Notes under the pieces: generated by a model | What the model saw: the letters and a program-made list of their open reading frames with translations, nothing else | The model's database searches: none | What the model was told of the DNA's origin: nothing | Assembly (NCBI GenBank): GCA_045531205.1 | Contig: JAZSDN010000050.1 | Coordinates: forward strand, 6,407-70,406 | From: Clostridia bacterium | GTDB lineage: Bacteria; Bacillota; Clostridia; UMGS1883; UMGS1540 | Length of the DNA stretch: 64,000 nt | Direction of reading: 5' to 3' | Translations under genes and position numbers: made by a program | Part shown: positions 40,263 through 51,075 of the stretch, piece after piece | Layout of the letters: every line of letters begins with the position of its first letter | Numbering within the stretch: the stretch's first letter is position 1

Positions 40263-41147
40263 TTAATAATTCATATATTTTTTCAACATATTCTTTTCAA
40301 AATTCAACAGATATTTTGCTTCTTCGTCAATTCTTTTTTCCGAAATGGAATCAATTAAATTGCGGTATACATGTATATCCCTGCCTACTTCTCCTCCTTC
40401 CATAACAAACGGTTCTGAGACTATTCTACCTCTATAGTTTATATCGGCAAGAGCTTTAAATATCTCGTCCCAATCAAGATGTCCTCTTCCAGGTGCTGTA
40501 CGATTATTTTCACCTGTATGAAAACTTGTAAGTTTATCTCCCACAAGTCTTATTGCATCACCTATATTATTTTCTTCAATATTCATATGATATGTGTCAA
40601 GAAGCACACCAATATTTGGGCTATCTATTTCTTCTGTATACATAAGAGCTTCTGCTGCAGTGTTAATAAGACAAGTTTCAAAACGGTTAACAGCTTCAAC
40701 ACAGTATGTAACTCCATTATCTTCGGCAGTTTTGATAATTTCTTTCATACTTTTAATGCTTTGTTCCCAATATGGACGTTTATCCCCCTGATAATTATCT
40801 GGAGTCCCCCATCCTGCATAGCTTACACCAGACAGTAATGTGCCATTCATAAACCCTATTCTTTCAACTATTCTTTTTAAATAATCAACTCCGCCAAGTC
40901 TTATTTTTTCATTCAGAGAGGATACATCATAATTTCTGTCAAGGCCAAGGCTGTATGTTAGTTCAATATTATATTCTTCGGCTAACTTAACTAAATCTTT
41001 CATGTGTTCTTTACTCATTTCAAGCAAAGGTTGTGCCTGAAATTCAAGAACATCAAACCCTATCTCGGATGCCTTTTTTATATATTTTTTATGGTCAGCA
41101 TCCCAGTTTTTCTCCCAAAAATTCATAAAAATACCAAACTTATTCAT
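40263..41147 (-). CDS. Ketose 3-epimerase (D-psicose/D-tagatose 3-epimerase family, xylose-isomerase-like TIM barrel)
   Basis: 294 aa. N-terminus MNKFGIFMNFWEKNWDADHKKYIKKASEIGFDVLEF parallels the DTE/DPE family N-terminus (…GIYYxYWExxWxxDxxxYIxKxxxLGFDxLE…). ...VEAVNRFE..., ...LLDTYHMNIEE... and ...VSEPF... metal-ligand regions are present. Confidence 0.8.
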   Translation of the reverse strand: MNKFGIFMNFWEKNWDADHKKYIKKASEIGFDVLEFQAQPLLEMSKEHMKDLVKLAEEYNIELTYSLGLDRNYDVSSLNEKIRLGGVDYLKRIVERIGFMNGTLLSGVSYAGWGTPDNYQGDKRPYWEQSIKSMKEIIKTAEDNGVTYCVEAVNRFETCLINTAAEALMYTEEIDSPNIGVLLDTYHMNIEENNIGDAIRLVGDKLTSFHTGENNRTAPGRGHLDWDEIFKALADINYRGRIVSEPFVMEGGEVGRDIHVYRNLIDSISEKRIDEEAKYLLNFEKNMLKKYMNY

Positions 41148-41163
41148 TTTATCTTACTCCTTA

Positions 41164-42564
41164 TTATAAAACATCTATATCGTATCCAAGATATTTCACA
41201 AGCGCTTCCTTCACACATTCTGACCATTCTCCTTTTGCAATGGCAACATGGTGTTTGTATCCGTTTTCGCACATATACTTAAATACATTTTTAAGATTAT
41301 CTTTTTCAAAAACAATACCTGTTCCAAAAAACTCTTTGTCAAACTTATCTTCTGTCAATGTGCCATTAGTTGTAAATCCATAAAGTTTTCCATTTTCGGT
41401 TTTAATGCTTGCAACTGTAACCTTTCCTGATTTTATTTTTCCGTTAAGAATTCCAACTCCGGTTCCTTCTCCGTAAGATTTTTTAAACATAAGATGTTCA
41501 TTTATAAAAGTATCATTTTCAAAGAATGAATTTGGAACTGCCGAGCAATGAAACATAATGACTTTATTTTCTTCATTTCCGTAATTATTGTTTACATCCA
41601 AAAGCATAACAGGATGATTTGAGGCTAAAGTTAACGCATACATCATAACAGCATTGTTAACATCAAGTTCACATGCGGCAGGTATTCCTTTTTCATTCAT
41701 ATCACTCAAAATAAGACAAGGTGCTATATTATACTGTGTAACAAATTCGTCCCAGCATCTTACTGCCATAGCATCAAGAGAATAGTCCTTAACCAATTTA
41801 TCTACTGCTACACCAAGCTTTGCAATATTTGTAAGCTTTTCTTCAGAATAACTTCCAAAAGATGTAACAGAAGAATAATATCTTTTTTTCTCATCTAATT
41901 CGGTTTTGTCAACTCTTTCCATTAAATCAAATATATACGATAAATCTATTGATTCAACATTTATATTTTTGTTTTGCAATGCCACTTCATCTGTACGTAC
42001 AGTTTTAAAAGCAGTTGTTCTAGCTCCTAACGTTCCAATGTTAACATTTCTCATTCCTTTAACAATTCTGCATATTGCAGCAAAGTTTTTTAAGTCTTTT
42101 GCAAAAGCTTCATCAAGAGGTGAAACTGCCATTTTTTCTGTTAAAGTGAATTTAATATTGCATTGACGCAAAAGATTACACATAGCAAATTTTCCGCACA
42201 CAGCATCTCTTCTTTGTGAAAAATCCATCTTCCCTATTTCGTCAGGATATGCTTGAACTAAAATTGGTACACTTACATTTTTAAATGCTTCTGCCGCACC
42301 ATTTTCATCCGAAAAGTTCGGCATACATAAAATTATACCGTCAAACCTTCCCTTGTTATTTTCTAAAAAATCTTTGAACAAACGTCCTTCTTCTCTTGTT
42401 TCTACCGCACCGTATCTTGTTAAATTTTTATCCATACAAATATAACTAAAACCATTATCGACTACAGCTTTTATCATTTCTTCTCTGGCTTTCGCTATAA
42501 CTTCTCCTGGAAAAAAACCTCTGTTTCCAAAAAATAATGCGAATGTAATTTCTATTTTCCTCAA
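41164..42564 (-). CDS. L-fucose/L-arabinose isomerase family protein (COG2407-type, substrate unknown)
   Basis: 466 aa. Family-typical features (...GARTTAFKTVR..., ...ACELDVNNAVMM..., ...MFHCSAVP...). Forms an operon with the epimerase. Confidence 0.72.
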   Translation of the reverse strand: MRKIEITFALFFGNRGFFPGEVIAKAREEMIKAVVDNGFSYICMDKNLTRYGAVETREEGRLFKDFLENNKGRFDGIILCMPNFSDENGAAEAFKNVSVPILVQAYPDEIGKMDFSQRRDAVCGKFAMCNLLRQCNIKFTLTEKMAVSPLDEAFAKDLKNFAAICRIVKGMRNVNIGTLGARTTAFKTVRTDEVALQNKNINVESIDLSYIFDLMERVDKTELDEKKRYYSSVTSFGSYSEEKLTNIAKLGVAVDKLVKDYSLDAMAVRCWDEFVTQYNIAPCLILSDMNEKGIPAACELDVNNAVMMYALTLASNHPVMLLDVNNNYGNEENKVIMFHCSAVPNSFFENDTFINEHLMFKKSYGEGTGVGILNGKIKSGKVTVASIKTENGKLYGFTTNGTLTEDKFDKEFFGTGIVFEKDNLKNVFKYMCENGYKHHVAIAKGEWSECVKEALVKYLGYDIDVL

Positions 42565-42602
42565 ATTTCTCCCTCCTTTTTATATATCTTACATTGCCTT
42601 TT

Positions 42603-42618
42603 TCACTATTTATAGTGA
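42603..42618. promoter_or_regulatory. Perfect 16-bp palindrome in the divergent promoter region
   Basis: TCACTATTTATAGTGA (7-bp arms, 2-bp centre), between the isomerase operon start (42564) and the PocR-AraC gene start (42717). Confidence 0.3.
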
Positions 42619-42716
42619 CTTTCTTGTTAAAAATAAGCACTATCTTACTTTTTTATTTTGCTAATATTGATTTTATTTGTTTTATTGTGTTAATATAAAA
42701 ACAAGGAGTGATATAT

Positions 42717-43565
42717 ATGATCTATAGTTTTGATAAAATAAAACTGCATAATATGTTTAAAGATTTTTACACTCTTTTAAAAATAACAATAAGTATTTGG
42801 GACTCGGATTTTAATCAGTTACTTTTTTATCCAAATCCCATGCCTTCAATATGTGCAAAAATAAAATCGTCGCCAACAGGCAAACAAAAATGTCTGGAAT
42901 CTGATATAAACGCCTGCAAAAAAGCTGCTTTAATAAAAAAACCTTATACCTTTACATGTCATGCAGGTCTTGTTGATACTGCTTTTCCGATTTATTATAA
43001 CGACGAAATAATTGCCTACATTATGTTTGGACAACTGCGCGATGTAGAAAATAAATTATCTACCATAGAAAATGTAAAAATTTTATGTAAGAAATATGGT
43101 TTAGATGAAAAAAGTATAGATAAATATTATAATGATTTACCGTTGCTTAATCATAATCAAATAAATGCCATTATACATCTATTTGAAATGTGTATTCCTT
43201 ATTTTTACACAAGTGAAGCGATAAAATTTGAAGAAAATATGCTTGCTTCAGAAATAGATAACTATATATCGCAAAACCTTTCTTCCTCTTTATCTCTTGA
43301 ACAATTAACTAAAAAATTTATGATTTCGACAAACGAATTATATCAGATATCACACAAATTTTTTGGCACTTCAATAAAAGACTATATAATTCAAAAAAGA
43401 ATTATCAAAGCGAAACACTATCTTGCAACAACTAATTTACCTGTTTCTGAAATAAGTATTAAAATTGGATATAATGATTACAACTATTTTATCCGCACCT
43501 TTAAAAATCGAACAGGGTACACTCCGCTTTCATACAGAAAAAATTTTCCGCTTAACACTTTGTAA
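42717..43565 (+). CDS. AraC family transcriptional regulator with an N-terminal PocR sensory domain
   Basis: The track ORF starts at the GTG at 42708. The ATG at 42717 has AAGGAG 8 nt upstream. PocR-like Cys pattern (...PSICAKIKSSPTGKQKCLESDINACKKA...TFTCHAGL...) and a C-terminal HTH_AraC (...IGYNDYNYFIRTFKNRTGYTPLSYRK). Confidence 0.85.
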   Translation: MIYSFDKIKLHNMFKDFYTLLKITISIWDSDFNQLLFYPNPMPSICAKIKSSPTGKQKCLESDINACKKAALIKKPYTFTCHAGLVDTAFPIYYNDEIIAYIMFGQLRDVENKLSTIENVKILCKKYGLDEKSIDKYYNDLPLLNHNQINAIIHLFEMCIPYFYTSEAIKFEENMLASEIDNYISQNLSSSLSLEQLTKKFMISTNELYQISHKFFGTSIKDYIIQKRIIKAKHYLATTNLPVSEISIKIGYNDYNYFIRTFKNRTGYTPLSYRKNFPLNTL

Positions 43566-43664: not shown

Positions 43665-44573
43665 TTAAACAAAATAGCAGCTTATATTGCATTTTTCATT
43701 AAGTATTGAACAGATTTTTTTCATTTCGCCATCTGTTTGTGAGCTGTCTGCGAATTTCGTGTATTCTTTTCCTGCAATCTTATATTTTGACTCAGCAAGA
43801 TTGTTGTATTTTAATAATTCAATCTCTTTTATTCCTTTTCCGAAGGTTTTTATGATTTCAGCAAAGGCATAAATATCATCATCAGAATCATTCACTCCGG
43901 GTATTACAGGAATTCGTAAAATGATATTACTGTGTTTGTTTGATAATTTAGTGATATTTTCGATTATCAGTCTGTTGTCCTGCCCTGTAAATTTGCGATG
44001 TTTTTCGGAATTTGGAATTTTCAAATCAGCAAAGAACAAGTCTACAAAGGGTAACACCTCTTCAACCTTTTCCCAAGGAACGAAAAAAGCACTTTCAATT
44101 GCTGTGTGAATCCCATGTTCTTTACACATTCTTGTAACTTCTGCCACAAAGTCTGAATACAACAAACACTCTCCGCCCGAAAAGGTTACTCCTCCGCCTG
44201 AGGAAATATAATAGTGAGCGTCTTTTTTAATTTCTTCAAAAAGTTCCGGAGCAGTCTTTTCCTCACCACACAGGCTAAGTGCAAGCGAAGGACAGCTTAC
44301 CGCGCATTTGCCGCAAGCTGCGCAACCTTCGCGCAGAAAAGCCATATCATTTCCCAGTATTTTATGATGTTGTGGACAAAGCTCAATACATTTACCGCAA
44401 TGAATACATTTTGTAGGTATGTAAAGAATTTGCTTTTTTGAAGACAATGTTTCCGGATTATGACACCATTTGCATCTAAGGGCGCATCCTTTGAAATATA
44501 CAACTGTTCTGACGCCCGGTCCATCATGCAAAGAACCTCTTGATATATTTGTAATTGTTGCACTTACAGACAT
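43665..44573 (-). CDS. Glycyl-radical enzyme activating protein (radical SAM) with a two-ferredoxin-motif insert
   Basis: 302 aa. Radical SAM CALRCKWCHNPE, plus CIHCGKCIELCP and CAACGKCAVSCP. The start overlaps the stop of the upstream GRE by 10 nt. Confidence 0.92.
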   Translation of the reverse strand: MSVSATITNISRGSLHDGPGVRTVVYFKGCALRCKWCHNPETLSSKKQILYIPTKCIHCGKCIELCPQHHKILGNDMAFLREGCAACGKCAVSCPSLALSLCGEEKTAPELFEEIKKDAHYYISSGGGVTFSGGECLLYSDFVAEVTRMCKEHGIHTAIESAFFVPWEKVEEVLPFVDLFFADLKIPNSEKHRKFTGQDNRLIIENITKLSNKHSNIILRIPVIPGVNDSDDDIYAFAEIIKTFGKGIKEIELLKYNNLAESKYKIAGKEYTKFADSSQTDGEMKKICSILNEKCNISCYFV

Positions 44574-47200
44574 GAATGCTTTGTCCTTCCGATAATATGA
44601 TTCTGAAGTTCAGGAGAAAGCAGGTTAAATTTTTGACTGAATCCAGAAACTCTTACTGCAAGGTTATTATATTTTTCCGGATATTTTTGTGCATCAATAA
44701 GAGTGTCTGCATCAATGGTATTAAACTGTACATTTTCCAGACCTTTTTCGCTGCTTGCAATTAAAATATCCGCAAGCATGGGTATATTTTTGTCAGTAAA
44801 CAATTTTGGATCAACTTCAACAATTGCCGAAGTTGTACCCGGAGTGCGTTTGGTTGGCAGTTTAGCAATTGAGTTAAGCAAAGCTGTTAAGCCGTTAAAA
44901 TCACGTCCCTGCATTGGAGAAACACTATAAGCTATAATTTCGCCTTTGCGTCTTCCGTCAGGAGTTGCGGCACTTTCTCGTCCGTAGTCAACCATCCAAA
45001 GGAATGTAAATGGTTGTGCATGGAATGAAAGTCCGTATTTTTCAGACAATTCTTCAAGATAATCGCAAGCAGTATTTACTATATCAACCGCAATTGAGTC
45101 TACACTTTCAATATCATTACCAAATTTTGCAGCTTTATTTATAAATTCAAGCCTTATACTTTCATCCGGAAAATTGTTAACTAATATATCTTTTAATTCT
45201 TCAAGTGTATATTTTTGTTGTATGTACACAAATTCACGAATAACCTCAAGTGAGTCGGCAAGGTTTGGTATTCCGCCAAGCATAATTTGGTAATAATCAT
45301 ACTTCGCTCCTGCATCATTAAAGTCTTTTCCTGTTTCAATACAACCGTCTGTCAGTAACGACTTGTAAGGTCTTGGGCTGTTGATAACAGAACAATCCCT
45401 GTGTTTTTTTACAGAAGAACAGGTCAAATCAAGAATATGATAAATTTGTTTTTTGACCGAATCATAAAACTTGTTATAGGTGTCAAACGAATTAAGCTCA
45501 CCGGTTTTTACACCTGTGTTAAAATCAGGATACATCATACTGCTGCCGTTACATAGCACATACTCAACTGCTTTAAGCAAATTGGTTTCTCCTGTTACGG
45601 CATGAGGATTGGATTTTCCCGGTATAACAGTTTCAACACATCCAATTTGAGTGTAGTCGCAGGCATCCTCATAAGATATTCCTTTGCTTGTAAGTGCAGG
45701 AATCATTACATCATCATTAAAGAAGAACGGAACACCTTTCTGGACATGACCTACCACCTCAAGGGCACGTTTTATAAATTCCTTTTCCGTATTTTTTGAG
45801 TAACGCACTGACATGCAACGTATAAAATCAAGCTGTTCGGTAGCATCGAGCATCATATAAGAAAGTTCATTGACCTGACTGCTTCCATCGGGAGAAGTCC
45901 CGCCGACACACGACTGCTGAACATCGTAATTTAAGTATAGTTTAATCCACAAGCAGCATATCAGTTCAAAAGCATCTTCTTTTGTCAAAATGCCTTTTTC
46001 AATATCCGCTTTGTAATATGGATAAAGTATCTGATCAAGTCTGCCGAGTGAATTTGCGTTTATATGGTCCTCCCATGTGTTGATGATATGCGCAAACCAT
46101 AAAGACTGTACTGCTTCTCTGAAGTTTGAAGCAGGATTTTCGGGAACATTTTCACACGCACTTATAATATAATCCAAATCCTTTTCAAGATAAAGTTCGT
46201 CACCAGATTCTTTAATTCTTTGAGCTTCTTTTGCATATTTTTTGCCCATTTCACAAGCTGCTACGCAAATACTTTTCATTGAAGAATAAAGCGGATTTGT
46301 TCCGTTTTTCTTTTCGTGCGCTATAACTTCGTCAAGCAGGCCTTTAAACCCAAGCTTCAATACTTTTTCATAGTTTATTACACTGTGATTAGAGTCGGTA
46401 CATCTTCCTATTGCAGCCCATTCTCCGCACGAATCCTGCTCGTCTTTTGTAAGAATCGGCGATACATATTCAAGAAAATTAGGCTCTTGTTTAGTCAGCT
46501 CAAAGTATTTTTCCAAATCGCTATCACTGATACCATTTAATTTGGCTAACCTGCGATTTTCTTCCGTGTCATCAGGTGAAAACCATTCATCGTATTTAGA
46601 GTCAGGAAAATTAAAACCAACAATTAGTTCTCCAGGAATAATTACAGGAGTAAATTTATCTAAAACATTAATAGCTCTTGCCGCGCTGATTTCTGTATTC
46701 GAAAGATTCTTTTTTGCTGCTTCAGCCATCCCAATATAAGAGTAAACTTTATTTTGCATACAATAATAATCTTCATAGTCGTTTGTGCCAACAACTAAGC
46801 GACGCAAAGCTTCACATCTGTCAGTCAGAGAATACATAGTAATTCTTTTCCTTTCATAATAAAATTGAGTTTCTTTTGCTTGCTTTTTATATTCTCTGGG
46901 CAAGCAACCGAATTCTGCCAAAAAGGCTTTGTTGAACCCGCCTAACGTTTCATATCCATAAGCTATTGCTACATCGGTTATTTTTTTGCCAGAGATTATA
47001 TCAATTGCAGCCAATTGGAGACGGTAATGTCGAACATATTTTACAAAAGACTTTCCGGTATATTTATGAAATTTCGAGCAAAAATGCCATTTAGAATACC
47101 CAAACTGATTTGCAACATCTGATAGGTCTAAACGCTTCTCGATATTATTATGAATATACTTTAAAACTTCATACACAACACCATCTCCTTTCATTTTCAT
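44564..47200 (-). CDS. Fusion protein: N-terminal AraC-type HTH DNA-binding domain plus a full glycyl radical enzyme (C-x-E thiyl-loop class)
   Basis: One uninterrupted 878-codon ORF. Residues about 10-110 are HTH_AraC (…LSDVANQFGYSKWHFCSKFHKYTGKSFVKYVRHYRL…ITDVAIAYGYETLGGFNKAFLAEFGCLPREYKK). From M122 there is a GRE core with IGCVETVIPGK and C-terminal RVSGFSQKFNLLSPELQNHIIGRTKH. The exact start is uncertain (ATG at 47200, or GTG at 47176 after AAAGGAG). Confidence 0.88.
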   Translation of the reverse strand: MKMKGDGVVYEVLKYIHNNIEKRLDLSDVANQFGYSKWHFCSKFHKYTGKSFVKYVRHYRLQLAAIDIISGKKITDVAIAYGYETLGGFNKAFLAEFGCLPREYKKQAKETQFYYERKRITMYSLTDRCEALRRLVVGTNDYEDYYCMQNKVYSYIGMAEAAKKNLSNTEISAARAINVLDKFTPVIIPGELIVGFNFPDSKYDEWFSPDDTEENRRLAKLNGISDSDLEKYFELTKQEPNFLEYVSPILTKDEQDSCGEWAAIGRCTDSNHSVINYEKVLKLGFKGLLDEVIAHEKKNGTNPLYSSMKSICVAACEMGKKYAKEAQRIKESGDELYLEKDLDYIISACENVPENPASNFREAVQSLWFAHIINTWEDHINANSLGRLDQILYPYYKADIEKGILTKEDAFELICCLWIKLYLNYDVQQSCVGGTSPDGSSQVNELSYMMLDATEQLDFIRCMSVRYSKNTEKEFIKRALEVVGHVQKGVPFFFNDDVMIPALTSKGISYEDACDYTQIGCVETVIPGKSNPHAVTGETNLLKAVEYVLCNGSSMMYPDFNTGVKTGELNSFDTYNKFYDSVKKQIYHILDLTCSSVKKHRDCSVINSPRPYKSLLTDGCIETGKDFNDAGAKYDYYQIMLGGIPNLADSLEVIREFVYIQQKYTLEELKDILVNNFPDESIRLEFINKAAKFGNDIESVDSIAVDIVNTACDYLEELSEKYGLSFHAQPFTFLWMVDYGRESAATPDGRRKGEIIAYSVSPMQGRDFNGLTALLNSIAKLPTKRTPGTTSAIVEVDPKLFTDKNIPMLADILIASSEKGLENVQFNTIDADTLIDAQKYPEKYNNLAVRVSGFSQKFNLLSPELQNHIIGRTKHSCL

Positions 47201-47254: not shown

Positions 47255-47286
47255 AAAAATGCTCGCCTGAAACAACAGACGAGCAT
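47255..47286 (-). terminator. Terminator hairpin belonging to the spoIVB 3' remnant
   Basis: The minus strand reads ATGCTCGTCTG-TTGTTT-CAGGCGAGCAT followed by TTTTTAA. This is an 11-bp stem with one G-U pair, in the same position relative to the remnant stop codon as the terminator of the intact spoIVB. Confidence 0.55.
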
Positions 47287-47291
47287 TCATC

Positions 47292-47448: not shown

Positions 47449-48282
47449 CTACGCTTTTTTAACTAATATATTTGTTTTTGCTCTGATATAATTAATTATT
47501 TCATTAATCTGTTCATCAGTTTGCATTGAAATTTCAAGCGGTTGTTTTCCTAATGCCAAGTACTTATTTTCGCCAAAAGCGTGATAAGGCTCTATTTCAA
47601 TCCCTATGATTGATGTAAGTGTATTTGCAAGTTCGCATATTTTGTCATAGTTTTCTTTTCTGTCATTATAGCCGGGAATTACAGGACAACGGAGAATAAT
47701 ATCTTTTTTTAACTCATTTAATAAATATAAGTTTTTCTTTATTAAAATATTGTCCACTCCTGTATAGGTCTTATGTAATTCAGGATTACTTTCCTTGAAA
47801 TCAAACAAAAACAAATCGGTGTATTCTGCAATTTGTTTTATTTTATCGCTATCGGCAAAGCCACAGGTTTCTATAGCAGTGTGCAGGTCATTTTCTTTAG
47901 CTTTTTTTAAAATGTCCAATGCAAACTCAAACTGAAACAACGGCTCACCACCCGAAAGTGTAATTCCGCCACCGGAATTTTTATAAAATTCATAGTCTTT
48001 CATAACTTCGTCAATAACATAATCTGACAATACTGTTTTTCCGCAGATTTCCTTCGCATTATTAAAACATATAAAATCCGAATTGTCAGCTGTTAAGTTT
48101 CGACATCTTCCACAGCCCGAACATTTATCCGGATAAAACATGATTTGTTTTTCTTGCGTCTGACTTTCAGGATTATGACACCATTCACAACGCAAAGGAC
48201 AGCCTTTGAAAAAAACAGTTGTGCGTATTCCCGGACCATCATTAACACAAAATTTTTGAATGTTAAATATTTCACCGGTCAT
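47449..48282 (-). CDS. Glycyl-radical enzyme activating protein (radical SAM), reduced auxiliary-cluster insert
   Basis: 277 aa. [12 protein letters not shown] radical SAM motif and only one CxxCxxC (CSGCGRC) in the insert region. Starts 2 nt after the GRE stop. Confidence 0.9.
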
Positions 48283-48284
48283 TT

Positions 48285-50234
48285 TTATTTCTCCTGCACT
48301 GCTCGTTCAATTACAGCGTCCTGAATTTTTTCATTCAATGTTGTAAACTGTGTACTGTAACCACTGATTTTAACAATAATATCCGTGTGTTCTGACGGAT
48401 TTTGTTTGGCTTCTTCTAACAATTTTGCATCTATAGTATTAACAGCAAGATGAAAACCGCCGGCTTCAAAAAATGTCTTTATTAGAGGTGTAAGTACACT
48501 GCTTTTTTCAATATCTTTTTTATTCAAACTTATCATAACAGGGCATCCGTTGGGAAAATATTTGGCAGAGATATTTGCGCATGACATCAGAGTTGATGTT
48601 AAGGTGCTTTTGTGAGGCGTTGCGCAAGGCATCACTCCGTAGGATAACAGTTCTCCTTTTTTTCTTCCGTTAACCATTCCGCTACAATCCCGCTGCCATA
48701 TATCCGCAGTAAAACGAAACAGTGCCGGCGAAGAAAGAACATTATCATCTATAGGATATTTTTGAATTACTTTTCCTATAAACTCGGTTATATCTTTAGC
48801 TAACTGATTACTTTCTTCGCTGTTGGAACCGTAATAAGTTTTTAAGCCTGCTATTTTATTATATAAAGATACATCCTCAAAATCTTTTTCTGCCTGCATC
48901 CTTAGATTTTTAATTGTTGTATGATTTTCGTCAAATACAAGCCTTTTTATAGTGTAAATACTGTCAATTAAAATGCCGATTCCCAAGATATTTATGCCAA
49001 ACAGGTATTTTTCCCGGTTTAATACACAGTTTGCAAATGGTGATACTGCGTTTCTATCTTGATTTGCAATACTCTTAAATTCAGGAAGTAAAGAGTTTGC
49101 ATAATAAAATTCAAAATAATTTTTGTATGCATTAAGAAAGTCTTTGAAAGAAGAATAATCAGACTTTTGCTCCAAAAACTCTTTGAAGGAATCATATAGG
49201 TTAACGGCTGCGGCAACTGTGTTTGAAAACGAGCCTTGGGGAGCTGGTTCGTAACAGCCAACAATTCCGTAATCCATTGCTCTCTTATCATCAATTCCCA
49301 ATTTTTTTAAACCTTCAATAATAGTATCATCATTGAAATATGCCGGCATACCGCTTCCGTTTAAAACCAGCCGAGTTGCTTTATTTAAAACATCGGTACT
49401 TGTTATTTTTGATACTCTCAGGGCAATGGATGGCTGGCGCATACTGATTTGTGTTTGAGCTTCAATAAATAACGATGTCAATTCATTTTCAATATCTCCA
49501 CCCACGGTCAGCATGCACGACTCATCACCCTCGGAATTTTTTATGTAAAAGCACATAATAAGTTCTAACGCTTCTTCCGGCGTAAGAATACCTTTTTCGA
49601 TATCATTTTTATAATATGGATACAGGTATGAATCTGCTCTGCCTAAAGATATTGCAGCGCCGCCCGCTTCTGTATATAAAAAGCATTGAATAAACCATAC
49701 AAGCTGTAACGCCTGACGAAAACTCACAGGAGGGTTTTCCGATATGAATTCACAGTCATTTGCGATGTTTAAAAGTCTTTCTTTATCTTCATTCTGCGAT
49801 AAAACATAAGCTTTTCTTGCAGTGTCAGCATAATTTTTTATGTAATTTGAAAAAGCCTTTAACGTATTTACCAAAGCTGTTTTATTAGAGTTTTTATTGA
49901 CTTCATTTATTTTCCCTTTAATTCCTTTTTCCAAGAAATCCTGAAAATCTGCAATGAAGTGCCCTCTATTCTGAGGTTTTACAGTTTCGCCAAGAGACCT
50001 TTGCCATTGCCAATGCCAGTTTGTTCCTACAATGTATTCCTTTTCATAAATTTCGGTTGAAAAGTTTTCTGAAAAATACTGATAGAAACCACTGTATAAA
50101 AGCCCTTTATCTTCTTCAACGTTTTTGTTTGAAATATATTGCTGATAAAGATTACATAAATGCTTTTTGTGTTGCTCTCTTTTTTCTTCAAACATAGCAA
50201 GGTGCTGTTTTTTTAAAAAAATTGTGTTATTCAT
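48285..50234 (-). CDS. Short glycyl radical enzyme homologue (about 649 aa)
   Basis: The track ORF starts at the GTG at 50255. The ATG at 50234 (MNNTIFL...) follows GGAAAGGAG. Thiyl loop VGCYEPAPQG and C-terminal glycine loop IVKISGYSTQFTTLNEKIQDAVIERA. Shares DIEKGILTxEEAxELI and FNDD motifs with the upstream GRE. Confidence 0.85.
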   Translation of the reverse strand: MNNTIFLKKQHLAMFEEKREQHKKHLCNLYQQYISNKNVEEDKGLLYSGFYQYFSENFSTEIYEKEYIVGTNWHWQWQRSLGETVKPQNRGHFIADFQDFLEKGIKGKINEVNKNSNKTALVNTLKAFSNYIKNYADTARKAYVLSQNEDKERLLNIANDCEFISENPPVSFRQALQLVWFIQCFLYTEAGGAAISLGRADSYLYPYYKNDIEKGILTPEEALELIMCFYIKNSEGDESCMLTVGGDIENELTSLFIEAQTQISMRQPSIALRVSKITSTDVLNKATRLVLNGSGMPAYFNDDTIIEGLKKLGIDDKRAMDYGIVGCYEPAPQGSFSNTVAAAVNLYDSFKEFLEQKSDYSSFKDFLNAYKNYFEFYYANSLLPEFKSIANQDRNAVSPFANCVLNREKYLFGINILGIGILIDSIYTIKRLVFDENHTTIKNLRMQAEKDFEDVSLYNKIAGLKTYYGSNSEESNQLAKDITEFIGKVIQKYPIDDNVLSSPALFRFTADIWQRDCSGMVNGRKKGELLSYGVMPCATPHKSTLTSTLMSCANISAKYFPNGCPVMISLNKKDIEKSSVLTPLIKTFFEAGGFHLAVNTIDAKLLEEAKQNPSEHTDIIVKISGYSTQFTTLNEKIQDAVIERAVQEK

Positions 50235-51018
50235 AAATAACAAACTCCTTTCCACAATACCCTAAATTTGCCGAGATTTCAGCGGAAGCATTTCTTATTA
50301 GATCAAGTTTTTCATTAATTAAAGAGTCAATATCGTCATATAGCGTCAGGCTTGAAACACCTATAGTTGCCACCACATTTCCTGTATAGTCAAAAATAGG
50401 TACTGCAATACAAATTATGCCTTTGGCAAACTCTTCATTATCAATAGCAAAACCTGCTTTTTTTATCTTATAAGCTTCAATAATAAAACTATCAAAATCC
50501 GTAATGGTATTTTCTGTTCTTTTGTCAACCGGTATATTAAAGTAATTCTTTATCTCATCTGTATCTGAATAACTTAAAAGAATCTTACCGGGGGCAGAAC
50601 AGTTAAGTGGGTATTCTCCACCTATACACCCATTAATTCTGACTTCCTTTGTGGAATCATAATGCAAAAGATAAAGGACGTTTCTTTCGTTTTTAACCCC
50701 AAGATAGACAGAATCACCAAGCTCATTATTTAACTGTTCTATGTAAGGAGTTGCAATTTTTGCAATGCTGTTATTATTAACATAACCTGATATAAGTGAA
50801 AAGGGACGGAGCGTTAATCTGTATTTTTTTTGAGTATTATCACTCATATAAATCCAATTTTTCTCGAGCAAAGCTTCCAACACCCTTGAAACAGCATTTT
50901 TATTTATATTAAGAGCATTACTTATATCAGCAATTCCTATTTCAGAATTTTTACTTGCAAAAAATTCAATTATTTCCAAAGCGTAATCTACAGCAGGAGC
51001 TTTAGACAACTTTATCAC
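50227..51018 (-). CDS. IclR family transcriptional regulator
   Basis: 263 aa. N-terminal wHTH (...ALEIIEFFASKNSEIGIADISNALNINKNAVSRVLEALLEKNWI...) and a C-terminal IclR effector domain. The likely true start is the TTG at 51009, 6 nt after GAGGTG. The stop overlaps the GRE start by 8 nt. Confidence 0.9.
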   Translation of the reverse strand: MIKLSKAPAVDYALEIIEFFASKNSEIGIADISNALNINKNAVSRVLEALLEKNWIYMSDNTQKKYRLTLRPFSLISGYVNNNSIAKIATPYIEQLNNELGDSVYLGVKNERNVLYLLHYDSTKEVRINGCIGGEYPLNCSAPGKILLSYSDTDEIKNYFNIPVDKRTENTITDFDSFIIEAYKIKKAGFAIDNEEFAKGIICIAVPIFDYTGNVVATIGVSSLTLYDDIDSLINEKLDLIRNASAEISANLGYCGKEFVIYE

Positions 51019-51046: not shown

Positions 51047-51075
51047 AGTATATCACGTAAAGATATATATGTCAA
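51047..51075 (-). promoter_or_regulatory. Sigma-A type promoter of the IclR-GRE-activase cassette
   Basis: The minus strand reads TTGACA (51075-51070), a 17-nt spacer ending in TGA, then TATACT (51052-51047). It directly abuts the spoIVB terminator. Confidence 0.6.

Follow-up and report, generated by a model that had tools for sequence, protein, structure and literature searches.

Results

Organization of the locus

The window, the stretch of 64,000 nucleotides of DNA analyzed here, carries a compact glycyl radical enzyme (GRE) gene on its minus strand at positions 48285..50234, encoding a PFL-like GRE of 649 aa plus stop. Its reading frame runs from an ATG at 50232-50234 to a TAA at 48285-48287, which bears out the length of about 649 aa given in a preliminary description of this DNA. 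A Shine-Dalgarno sequence (GGAAAGGAG) lies upstream of the ATG, and the homologues start in the same column of the alignment. A GTG at 50255 offers an alternative start, from which the protein would be 656 aa long.

On the same strand, the GRE gene follows a gene for an IclR-family transcriptional regulator of 263 aa (50227..51018; Pfam IclR_C 5e-38, HTH_IclR 4e-07), the first of the operon, and precedes that of a radical-SAM activating enzyme of 277 aa (47449..48282), which scores 300 bits against the NCBIfam model for glycyl-radical enzyme activating proteins (TIGR02494, cutoff 174). Scores of the regulator against the PcaR/KdgR-like NCBIfam models fall below cutoff. The stop of the IclR gene and the start of the GRE gene overlap by 8 nt, and the activase start lies 2 nt past the GRE stop. 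Upstream of the IclR gene, a consensus scan predicts a promoter-like site at 51047..51075 (minus strand). It reads TTGACA-17-TATACT, the -10 element being extended by TG, and its match to 11 of 12 consensus positions is the best in the region. Downstream of the activase gene, a terminator-like hairpin followed by a T-run is visible in the sequence (47255..47287, minus strand). A 61-nt fragment around this hairpin gives a longer nested helix (-22.9 kcal/mol); the consensus scan made no call at the hairpin. To judge by this arrangement of overlap, spacing, and flanking signals, the regulator, the GRE, and the activase are one translationally coupled transcription unit, in agreement with the earlier suggestion of a dedicated activase and regulator. 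The ferredoxin-like insert of the activase is shortened to 67 aa with 5 Cys, most relatives having 87-88 aa with 8-10 Cys.

The neighboring GRE, of 878 aa, is set apart by a terminator-like hairpin and served by a promoter-like site and an activase of its own. It contains DIEKGILTKEDAFELI, FNDD, RVSGFS, and IIGRTKH, and Pfam assigns its first ~110 residues to an AraC-type HTH domain, which fits the earlier placement of its GRE core from M122 onward.

Catalytic motifs of the compact GRE

Two Pfam domains match the compact protein: the PFL-like domain spans residues 84-508 (E 5e-76, covering profile positions 151-640 of 647), and Gly_radical spans residues 533-631 (E 8e-14, above the gathering score). 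The motifs listed in the preliminary description were found again, namely VGCYEPAPQG with C327 and E329, FNDD, and DIEKGILTPEEALELI, as was the variant glycine loop, IVKISGYSTQFTTLNEKIQDAVIERAVQEK, with K622 and G625 and with Lys for Arg. The Cys loop reads GIVGCYE, and its core, Cys327-Tyr328-Glu329 (codons at 49248..49256, minus strand), is invariant at three of three residues in an alignment of 27 sequences, conforming to the C-x-E motif of the 1,2-eliminases and isomerases as defined in PMC13450708. In the Gly loop, VKISGYS, the core Lys622-Ile-Ser-Gly625-Tyr626 (48357..48371, minus strand) departs from the fingerprint R-V-x-G-[FWY] by a Lys at the Arg position and keeps Gly625 and Tyr626; Gly625 is invariant in the same alignment. 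So are R524 and His92, the latter in an N-x-G-H motif (codon at 49959..49961, minus strand) and equivalent to His164 of glycerol dehydratase. The downstream IIxRTxH motif had been described as replaced, by VIERAVQ; this needs correction in that the Arg of the I-x-R motif is kept, as the invariant R644.

A clade of conserved length

It had been considered that the homologues might uniformly be about 800 aa long. The 74 full-length relatives, which come from several phyla and share 32-78% identity, measure 628-734 aa; their median of 657.5 aa compares with one of 781 aa for other GREs. All but two of the full-length members (72/74) have VGCYE. At the fingerprint position, Lys is found in 47/74, which form an inner clade, and Arg in 26/74, which form an outer one; Lys for Arg also occurs sporadically in five unrelated long GREs. 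By this distribution, the replacement is best read as a conservative change that is fixed at the level of the inner clade, the outer members keeping Arg. A strict co-variation of this change with the shortened activase did not hold, as one locus (L013) combines K-I-S-G-L with a full-length activase insert.

Could the gene be a decaying paralogue with lineage-specific internal deletions, the alternative raised in the preliminary description? The protein falls 130-150 aa below the typical length of PFL-like GREs, its fingerprint is non-canonical, a second, full-length GRE lies next door, and only the subclade of the window protein has a 13-aa deletion following residue 407. That deletion, however, is present in 7/7 subclade members (P0002, P0004, P0006, P0013, P0015, P0020, and P0029) at 54-78% identity, the short length is common to the 74 relatives, and the reading frame is intact. 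The dN/dS of the gene is ~0.10-0.14, a value for which three to four comparisons are informative, synonymous sites being saturated for pairs below ~66% amino-acid identity, and the catalytic residues are invariant. A confident structural model of a complete fold and the coupling of the gene to its own activase argue in the same direction. We therefore reject decay, which appears barely credible.

The loci nearest to that of the window GRE belong to Clostridia MAGs and one Ructibacterium sp. MAG, and the clade is found only in uncultured anaerobes. The host of the window DNA is an uncultured, low-GC member of the Clostridia (GC ~35%). Other lineages also contain PFL-like GREs that do not exceed 700 aa (9/145 sampled), and the clade is "minimal" only in a relative sense because these other short lineages exist. 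The earlier statement that characterized GREs span 750-900 aa likewise requires a qualification, as it leaves out the class III ribonucleotide reductases.

Predicted fold and origin of the compactness

Whether so short a protein could form a closed barrel had been a further concern. The AF2 model (pLDDT 91.7, pTM 0.91) contains the 10-stranded β/α barrel, as five plus five strands, with both the Gly and the Cys finger, and predicts a β-hairpin at residues 323-331 that would carry Cys327. Query-normalized Foldseek TM scores are 0.84-0.87 against glycerol dehydratase (GD), 1,2-propanediol dehydratase (PD), CutC, and PflD, and structural alignments with solved GREs give 18-25% identity. The compactness results from trimming of ~67 aa of the N-terminal region, which forms the dimer interface in canonical GREs (PMC13450708), and of several loops, two of which shape the substrate pocket in GD; the barrel and the two fingers are retained in the model. 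Of the segments previously thought to be missing, those in the N-terminal region, which is helical, are indeed absent, but those assigned to the middle of the barrel turn out to be loops and not barrel strands.

Comparison with characterized GREs

No characterized family claims the protein: all NCBIfam model scores lie far below cutoff, and neither NCBIfam, Pfam, nor the solved structures yielded a characterized short GRE family to which it belongs. The match to the YjjI-like family (PF11230) is weak and partial, with 22.9 bits (gathering score 23) over profile positions 60-237 of 485, and this assignment was rejected; YjjI-like GREs and the window GRE are both shorter than canonical PFL-like GREs, and the window GRE is far closer to the PFL2/eliminase group. 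A literature search on YjjI, short GREs, and AraC-GRE fusions found nothing relevant.

The best matches to the family profile are GD from Clostridium butyricum (1R8W/1R9D) and PD from Roseburia inulinivorans (5I2G), with 415 and 398 bits, respectively. These enzymes resemble the window GRE in fold (Foldseek TMq 0.84-0.85), in the C-x-E Cys loop and the C-terminal Gly loop, and in having a dedicated radical-SAM activase. In profile alignments, from which, rather than from coordinates, all residue equivalences given here are taken, His92 falls on His164 of 1R8W and Cys327 on Cys433 of GD. Identity is nevertheless only ~22-23% in the Foldseek alignments, the window GRE is 138 aa shorter than GD and has Lys at the fingerprint Arg position, and the GD/PD model TIGR01774 gives 252 bits (cutoff 678). 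GD residues H281 and S282 correspond to A193 and A194, Y640 corresponds to F506, and the GD loops with Y339 and D447 are deleted; given these replacements and deletions, the substrate should be neither glycerol nor propanediol. Unlike GD and PD, the window GRE has no microcompartment or aldehyde-processing genes nearby. An E-G-D-E-S motif (E235-S239) was considered as a family-specific substrate binder and set aside, since the aligned GD position reads R-D-E-I-S.

More distant classes differ in their key residues or scores. The formate lyases PFL and TdcE have a Cys-Cys pair where the window GRE has G-C-Y-E (TIGR01255, 77 bits, cutoff 994). Choline trimethylamine-lyase, CutC, has an Asp (D216 in Desulfovibrio alaskensis numbering) aligned with the GD His164 position, where the compact family has the invariant His92; its model TIGR04394 gives 188 bits (cutoff 1050), and the microcompartment context is absent. 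The YbiW/PflD isomerases, which act on 1,5-anhydroglucitol/-mannitol-6-phosphate (8YJN, 8YJO, 8ID0), have in common with the window GRE the C-x-E motif and a ketyl-radical logic of C-O cleavage (PMC13450708). They differ from it in length (765-810 aa), share 22-24% identity with it, and have an equivalog model, NF007437, that gives 178 bits (cutoff 1109); in addition, PTS or aldolase partners are not conserved beside family members. The aminoacyl radical enzymes ARE, SRE, and TRE are like the compact family in having non-canonical fingerprints, in occurring mostly in MAGs, and in being closest to eliminases, but replace the radical Gly by Ala, Ser, or Thr, whereas Gly625 is invariant here and the change affects the Arg position (PMC11528403).

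Genomic context and tandem paralogues

Of 42 related loci, about 13-15 have an IclR gene beside the GRE. We compared two neighbors on each side in 41 family loci (127 proteins) with Pfam, leaving out obvious GRE paralogues. IclR (13) and the radical-SAM activase (13) recurred, together with further GREs, and a sulfatase was present in three loci; no catabolic partner, transporter, or microcompartment was shared among them. With no partner conserved, the context neither supports nor specifies a reaction.

In about 13 of these 42 loci, the family member has another GRE beside it, and often just one activase is present (L001, L004, L006, L008, L023, L039, L040, and L042); L012, L023, and L042 have, beside the family member, a relative of the catalytic core of the AraC::GRE fusion. 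It is conceivable that the compact GRE depends on a partner, either within a hetero-oligomer or through a relay to a divergent second GRE paralogue. The trimming of the N-terminal region, where canonical GREs have their dimer interface (PMC13450708), and the published precedent of Fu et al. 2024, whose aminoacyl radical enzymes include paired TREs with one activase (PMC11528403), would fit such an arrangement. The partner paralogues, however, have 20-40% identity and differing Cys loops, a diversity that speaks against a single conserved partner, and many loci contain the family member alone. In the window itself, the compact GRE has its own activase, and the second GRE, behind its hairpin, is separately equipped with a promoter-like site and an activase. 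We regard a hetero-oligomer or relay as improbable.

Discussion

Our analysis of the sequence indicates that the gene is an intact and conserved compact GRE, belonging to an uncharacterized clade of ~630-730 aa. The preliminary description had proposed a divergent compact GRE subfamily, and this proposal is supported by the conserved length, the invariant catalytic residues, the dN/dS values, the complete predicted fold, and the lack of any family assignment. The clade is real and modestly novel, one among many unannotated GREs: a few dozen GREs have been characterized, and whole clades are without assignment (PMC13450708).

What reaction might such an enzyme catalyze? We propose that it is probably a streamlined, functional PFL-like GRE that cleaves a C-O bond of a hydroxylated small molecule by Cys/Glu/His radical chemistry of the dehydratase or isomerase type. 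According to a 2026 review, Glu435 acts as the base and His164 as the acid in GD, and C-x-E is kept by all eliminases and isomerases (PMC13450708). Glu329 of the C-x-E motif and His92, the counterpart of GD His164, are both kept, and C-O cleavage is therefore the most likely chemistry. By analogy with the established GRE mechanism, the activase, with S-adenosylmethionine, would abstract an H atom from Gly625 of the K-I-S-G-Y loop; the resulting glycyl radical would generate a thiyl radical on Cys327, which in turn would take an H atom from the substrate. Residue conservation suggests that C-O cleavage would then proceed through a ketyl radical by a spin-centre shift, either as a dehydratase-type 1,2-elimination or as a ring-opening isomerization, on a hydroxylated small molecule other than glycerol or propanediol. 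The IclR regulator presumably senses this substrate or a related metabolite.

A functional GRE of other chemistry, performing C-N or C-S elimination, decarboxylation, or C-C cleavage, is a possible though rather unlikely alternative. C-x-E is found also in C-N and C-S lyases (PMC13450708), the family is structurally equidistant from all these classes, the substrate-binding residues of GD are not conserved in it, and the sulfatase genes lie beside three members from PVC-group phyla. Individual classes nevertheless fit poorly. The family His contrasts with the Asp of CutC, and the PFL-type Cys-Cys motif is missing. For decarboxylases, the HPAD score is much lower (80 bits, against 198 bits for GD), and a small-subunit gene was not found within the window. 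The C-S lyases IslA, IseG, and HpsG anchor the sulfonate by two Arg and one Gln (IslA R189, Q193, and R678; PMC13450708); they have Gln at the position of His92, IslA Q193 aligning with His92 and R189 with Gln87, equivalences that rest on the alignment offset only (7KQ3 residue 194 = profile position 93).

GREs, which are sensitive to oxygen, catalyze demanding anaerobic reactions of relevance to gut metabolism. The clade suggests that the GRE scaffold tolerates a loss of ~15-18% of its length, including pocket loops and part of the N-terminal region, where canonical GREs have their dimer interface, and that Lys is tolerated in the "universal" R-V-x-G fingerprint with the gene still under purifying selection. 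More speculatively, and in our view quite unlikely, the pared-down scaffold could support a reaction type new to GREs, or be one component of islands in which as many as four tandem GRE paralogues share one activase, multi-GRE islands that would form a hitherto unrecognized radical catabolic network in uncultured gut Clostridia and PVC-group bacteria. The features cited for this reading are the trimmed N-terminus, an open or remodeled pocket, the Lys fingerprint, and a single auxiliary cluster predicted for the activases of the closest subclade. A small GRE paired with a small activase might also be a handy system for studies of activation or for engineering.

The Gene and Its Family

The short glycyl radical enzyme (GRE) of the window, a member of the GRE superfamily, is encoded on the minus strand by a 649-aa ORF running from an ATG at 50234 to a stop at 48285–48287, with GGAAAGGAG as the ribosome-binding site 5' of it and a start column that is the same as in homologues (27-sequence alignment). 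Pfam places a PFL-like domain at residues 84–508, covering only positions 151–640 of the 647 in the profile, and a Gly_radical domain at residues 533–631. A preliminary description had noted an unusually short GRE with a variant glycine loop; ORF and domains bear this out, as do the motifs, all of which were found in the translation as quoted: GIVGCYEPAPQG, containing Cys327 and Glu329; IVKISGYS, containing Lys622 and Gly625; DIEKGILTPEEALELI; FNDD; and the C-terminal VIERAVQEK. The canonical RVSGFS and IIGRTKH are found in the neighbouring 878-aa GRE.

Searching 5.8 billion proteins brought up relatives at 30–78% identity, nearly all of similar length. We defined the family by a profile built from 27 members, which scores members above 600 bits and the nearest outsiders at no more than 430 bits; the range in between is sparsely populated, in part by fragments. 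The 74 full-length members among the proteins fetched measure 628–734 aa (median 657.5); the median of 145 sampled non-family GREs is 781 aa, and nine of these 145 are PFL-like GREs of 700 aa or less in other lineages. All 44 family loci (one genome per species) lie in metagenome-assembled or uncultured genomes, from gut Clostridia of ruminants, rabbit and human, and further from Victivallales/Lentisphaerae, Armatimonadota, Verrucomicrobiota, Phycisphaerales and Pontiellaceae. One longest-ORF call, in a Lentisphaerae genome (L034:5109-9566), gives a family member as a 1485-aa product overlapping an upstream 750-aa GRE, which is probably no true fusion but an artefact of calling ORFs at high GC.

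Is this a decaying paralogue, as had been considered, a private deletion in a line of homologues uniformly about 800 aa long? The short length is family-wide, the reading frame is intact, and the invariant residues of the 27-sequence alignment include Gly625, Cys327, Tyr328, Glu329, His92, Arg199, Arg524 and Arg644. The only pairs without saturation give a dN/dS of 0.10–0.14, and the gene is not a decaying copy on this evidence.

The glycine loop bears on the same question. Lys in this clade breaks the textbook GRE fingerprint R-V-x-G-[FWY] (PMC11528403). V/I-K-I-S-G occurs throughout the inner clade, which reaches down to about 41% identity with the window protein, the outer clade (30–40% identity) carries V-R-I-S-G, and five unrelated long GREs also have Lys at the Arg position, as V-K-V-A-G-Y. 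This distribution marks the exchange as a fixed, conservative, clade-level substitution with no sign of decay. In a few family members (P0029, P0035, P0040 and others), the radical Gly is followed by His or Leu and not by an aromatic residue (KISGHS, KISGLS, RISGL).

Fold and Predicted Chemistry

Alignment to 40 GREs of 770–830 aa and to glycerol dehydratase (GD; 1R8W) mapped the missing segments. Common to the whole family are deletions of about 67 aa in the N-terminal region, between E-L-I-V-G-T and N-x-G-H (residues 72–85), and of about 15 aa each after residue 236 and after the Cys loop; those of 15 and 6 aa after residues 113 and 246 affect variable loops in part of the family. A further 13 aa, forming a G-G-A-x-Y-N hairpin, are missing after residue 407 (window 49014–49016 region) in the window subclade only, in all seven of its members in the alignment (54–78% identity); the hairpin is kept in about 82% of the family and in most long GREs. 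All barrel strands are spared by these deletions. In the AlphaFold2 model (pLDDT 91.7, pTM 0.91), 5+5 strands are present together with the Cys and Gly hairpins, and Foldseek gives query-normalised TM scores of 0.84–0.87 to GD, 1,2-propanediol dehydratase (PD), choline trimethylamine-lyase (CutC) and the GRE isomerase PflD; the suspicion that the barrel might not close is thus not borne out at the level of prediction. The conserved GRE dimer interface is formed by N-terminal helices preceding the barrel (PMC13450708), and since this region is partly trimmed, the oligomeric state may differ from that of canonical GREs.

By sequence, the nearest solved relatives are the C-x-E eliminases (family-profile scores: GD 415, PD 398 and CutC 378 bits), at an identity of only 18–25% to solved GREs in structural alignments. 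In GD, Glu435 acts as base and His164 as acid, and C-x-E is kept in all eliminases and isomerases (PMC13450708). His164 aligns exactly with the invariant His92, whereas CutC has Asp there. By alignment, the substrate contacts of GD (H281, S282, Tyr339, Asp447 and Tyr640) are not retained: the first two become Ala193 and Ala194 and the last Phe506, and the loops bearing Tyr339 and Asp447, which correspond to the deletions after residue 236 and after the Cys loop, are absent. The short GRE is predicted to work most like C-x-E eliminases and isomerases.

It belongs to no characterised family. NCBIfam equivalog and subfamily models all score far under their cutoffs (e.g., TIGR01774, 252 bits against 678), and a literature search found no paper on its clade. 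Identities as GD/PD, CutC, C-S lyase, PFL, YjjI or aminoacyl radical enzyme were each tried and rejected in membership tests. The protein is most aptly seen as a compact variant, so far uncharacterised, of a known kind of enzyme system, its clade being one more among many unannotated GRE clades.

Activase and Genomic Neighbourhood

The short GRE lies in an operon opened by an IclR-family gene (50227–51018, minus strand), which is upstream and shares 8 nt with the start of the GRE gene; just 5' of the IclR gene is TTGACA-17-TATACT, the region's best sigma-70-like site, which has an extended -10 TG. The short GRE has its own 277-aa radical-SAM activase (47449–48282, minus strand), which starts 2 nt past the GRE stop and scores 300 bits against TIGR02494 (cutoff 174). 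On its 3' side the activase gene is followed by a GC-rich hairpin with a T-run, in a 61-nt fragment folding at -22.9 kcal/mol, and the second GRE with its own 302-aa activase forms a separate unit beyond the hairpin. The ferredoxin-like insert of the 277-aa activase is shortened to 67 aa with 5 Cys, which suggests one auxiliary [4Fe-4S] cluster rather than two; that of the second activase and most relatives has 87–88 aa and 8–10 Cys. The shortened form also occurs at loci L004 and L008, beside 58–66%-identical family members, and not at L013. In a genome with a 71%-identical orthologue, gene calling splits the activase that follows the GRE pair into two small pieces of 67 and 121 aa (L001:13997-14584), which either gene disruption or faulty assembly could explain.

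In the 41 family loci compared, nothing recurs next to the GRE except an IclR regulator and an activase (each in about 13–15 of 42 loci) and further GRE paralogues (about 13 of 42). Sulfatases occur three times, in PVC-group genomes, and no conserved microcompartment, aldehyde dehydrogenase or transporter was found across the 41 loci; genomic context does not indicate the family's substrate. The neighbouring paralogues are very diverse (20–40% identity, differing Cys-loop motifs), so a fixed heteromeric partner is unlikely.

The neighbouring AraC::GRE (44564–47200, minus strand, 878 aa) joins an AraC-type HTH domain (HTH_18, residues 30–107) to a GRE core that is complete and carries RVSGFS and GCVE. 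Such fusions are widespread: among the clusters listed, the best 120 show 65–92% identity and derive from metagenome-assembled genomes of Oscillospiraceae, Ruminococcaceae and Clostridia; apart from a few that are truncated, they measure about 865–890 aa and share the HTH, PFL-like and Gly_radical architecture. A literature search found no paper on this fusion, and a radical enzyme that carries a DNA-binding domain may be a greater oddity than the short GRE. Adjoining this unit are a divergently oriented PocR-sensor/AraC regulator (42708–43565, plus strand), a fucose-isomerase-like protein (41164–42564, minus strand) and a xylose-isomerase-like TIM-barrel protein (40263–41147, minus strand); these genes (40263–43565) may point to a sugar-related context.

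In other genomes, some family members sit in GRE islands made up of two to four highly divergent paralogues at 20–40% identity (L042:1306-10864; also loci L001, L004, L006, L008, L023, L039 and L040), with Cys-loop motifs including ACC, GCC, NSCMG, GGCTE and IGCIE, and a single activase often serves the whole island. Relatives of the AraC::GRE core occur in the islands at L023 and L042, at 35–39% identity.
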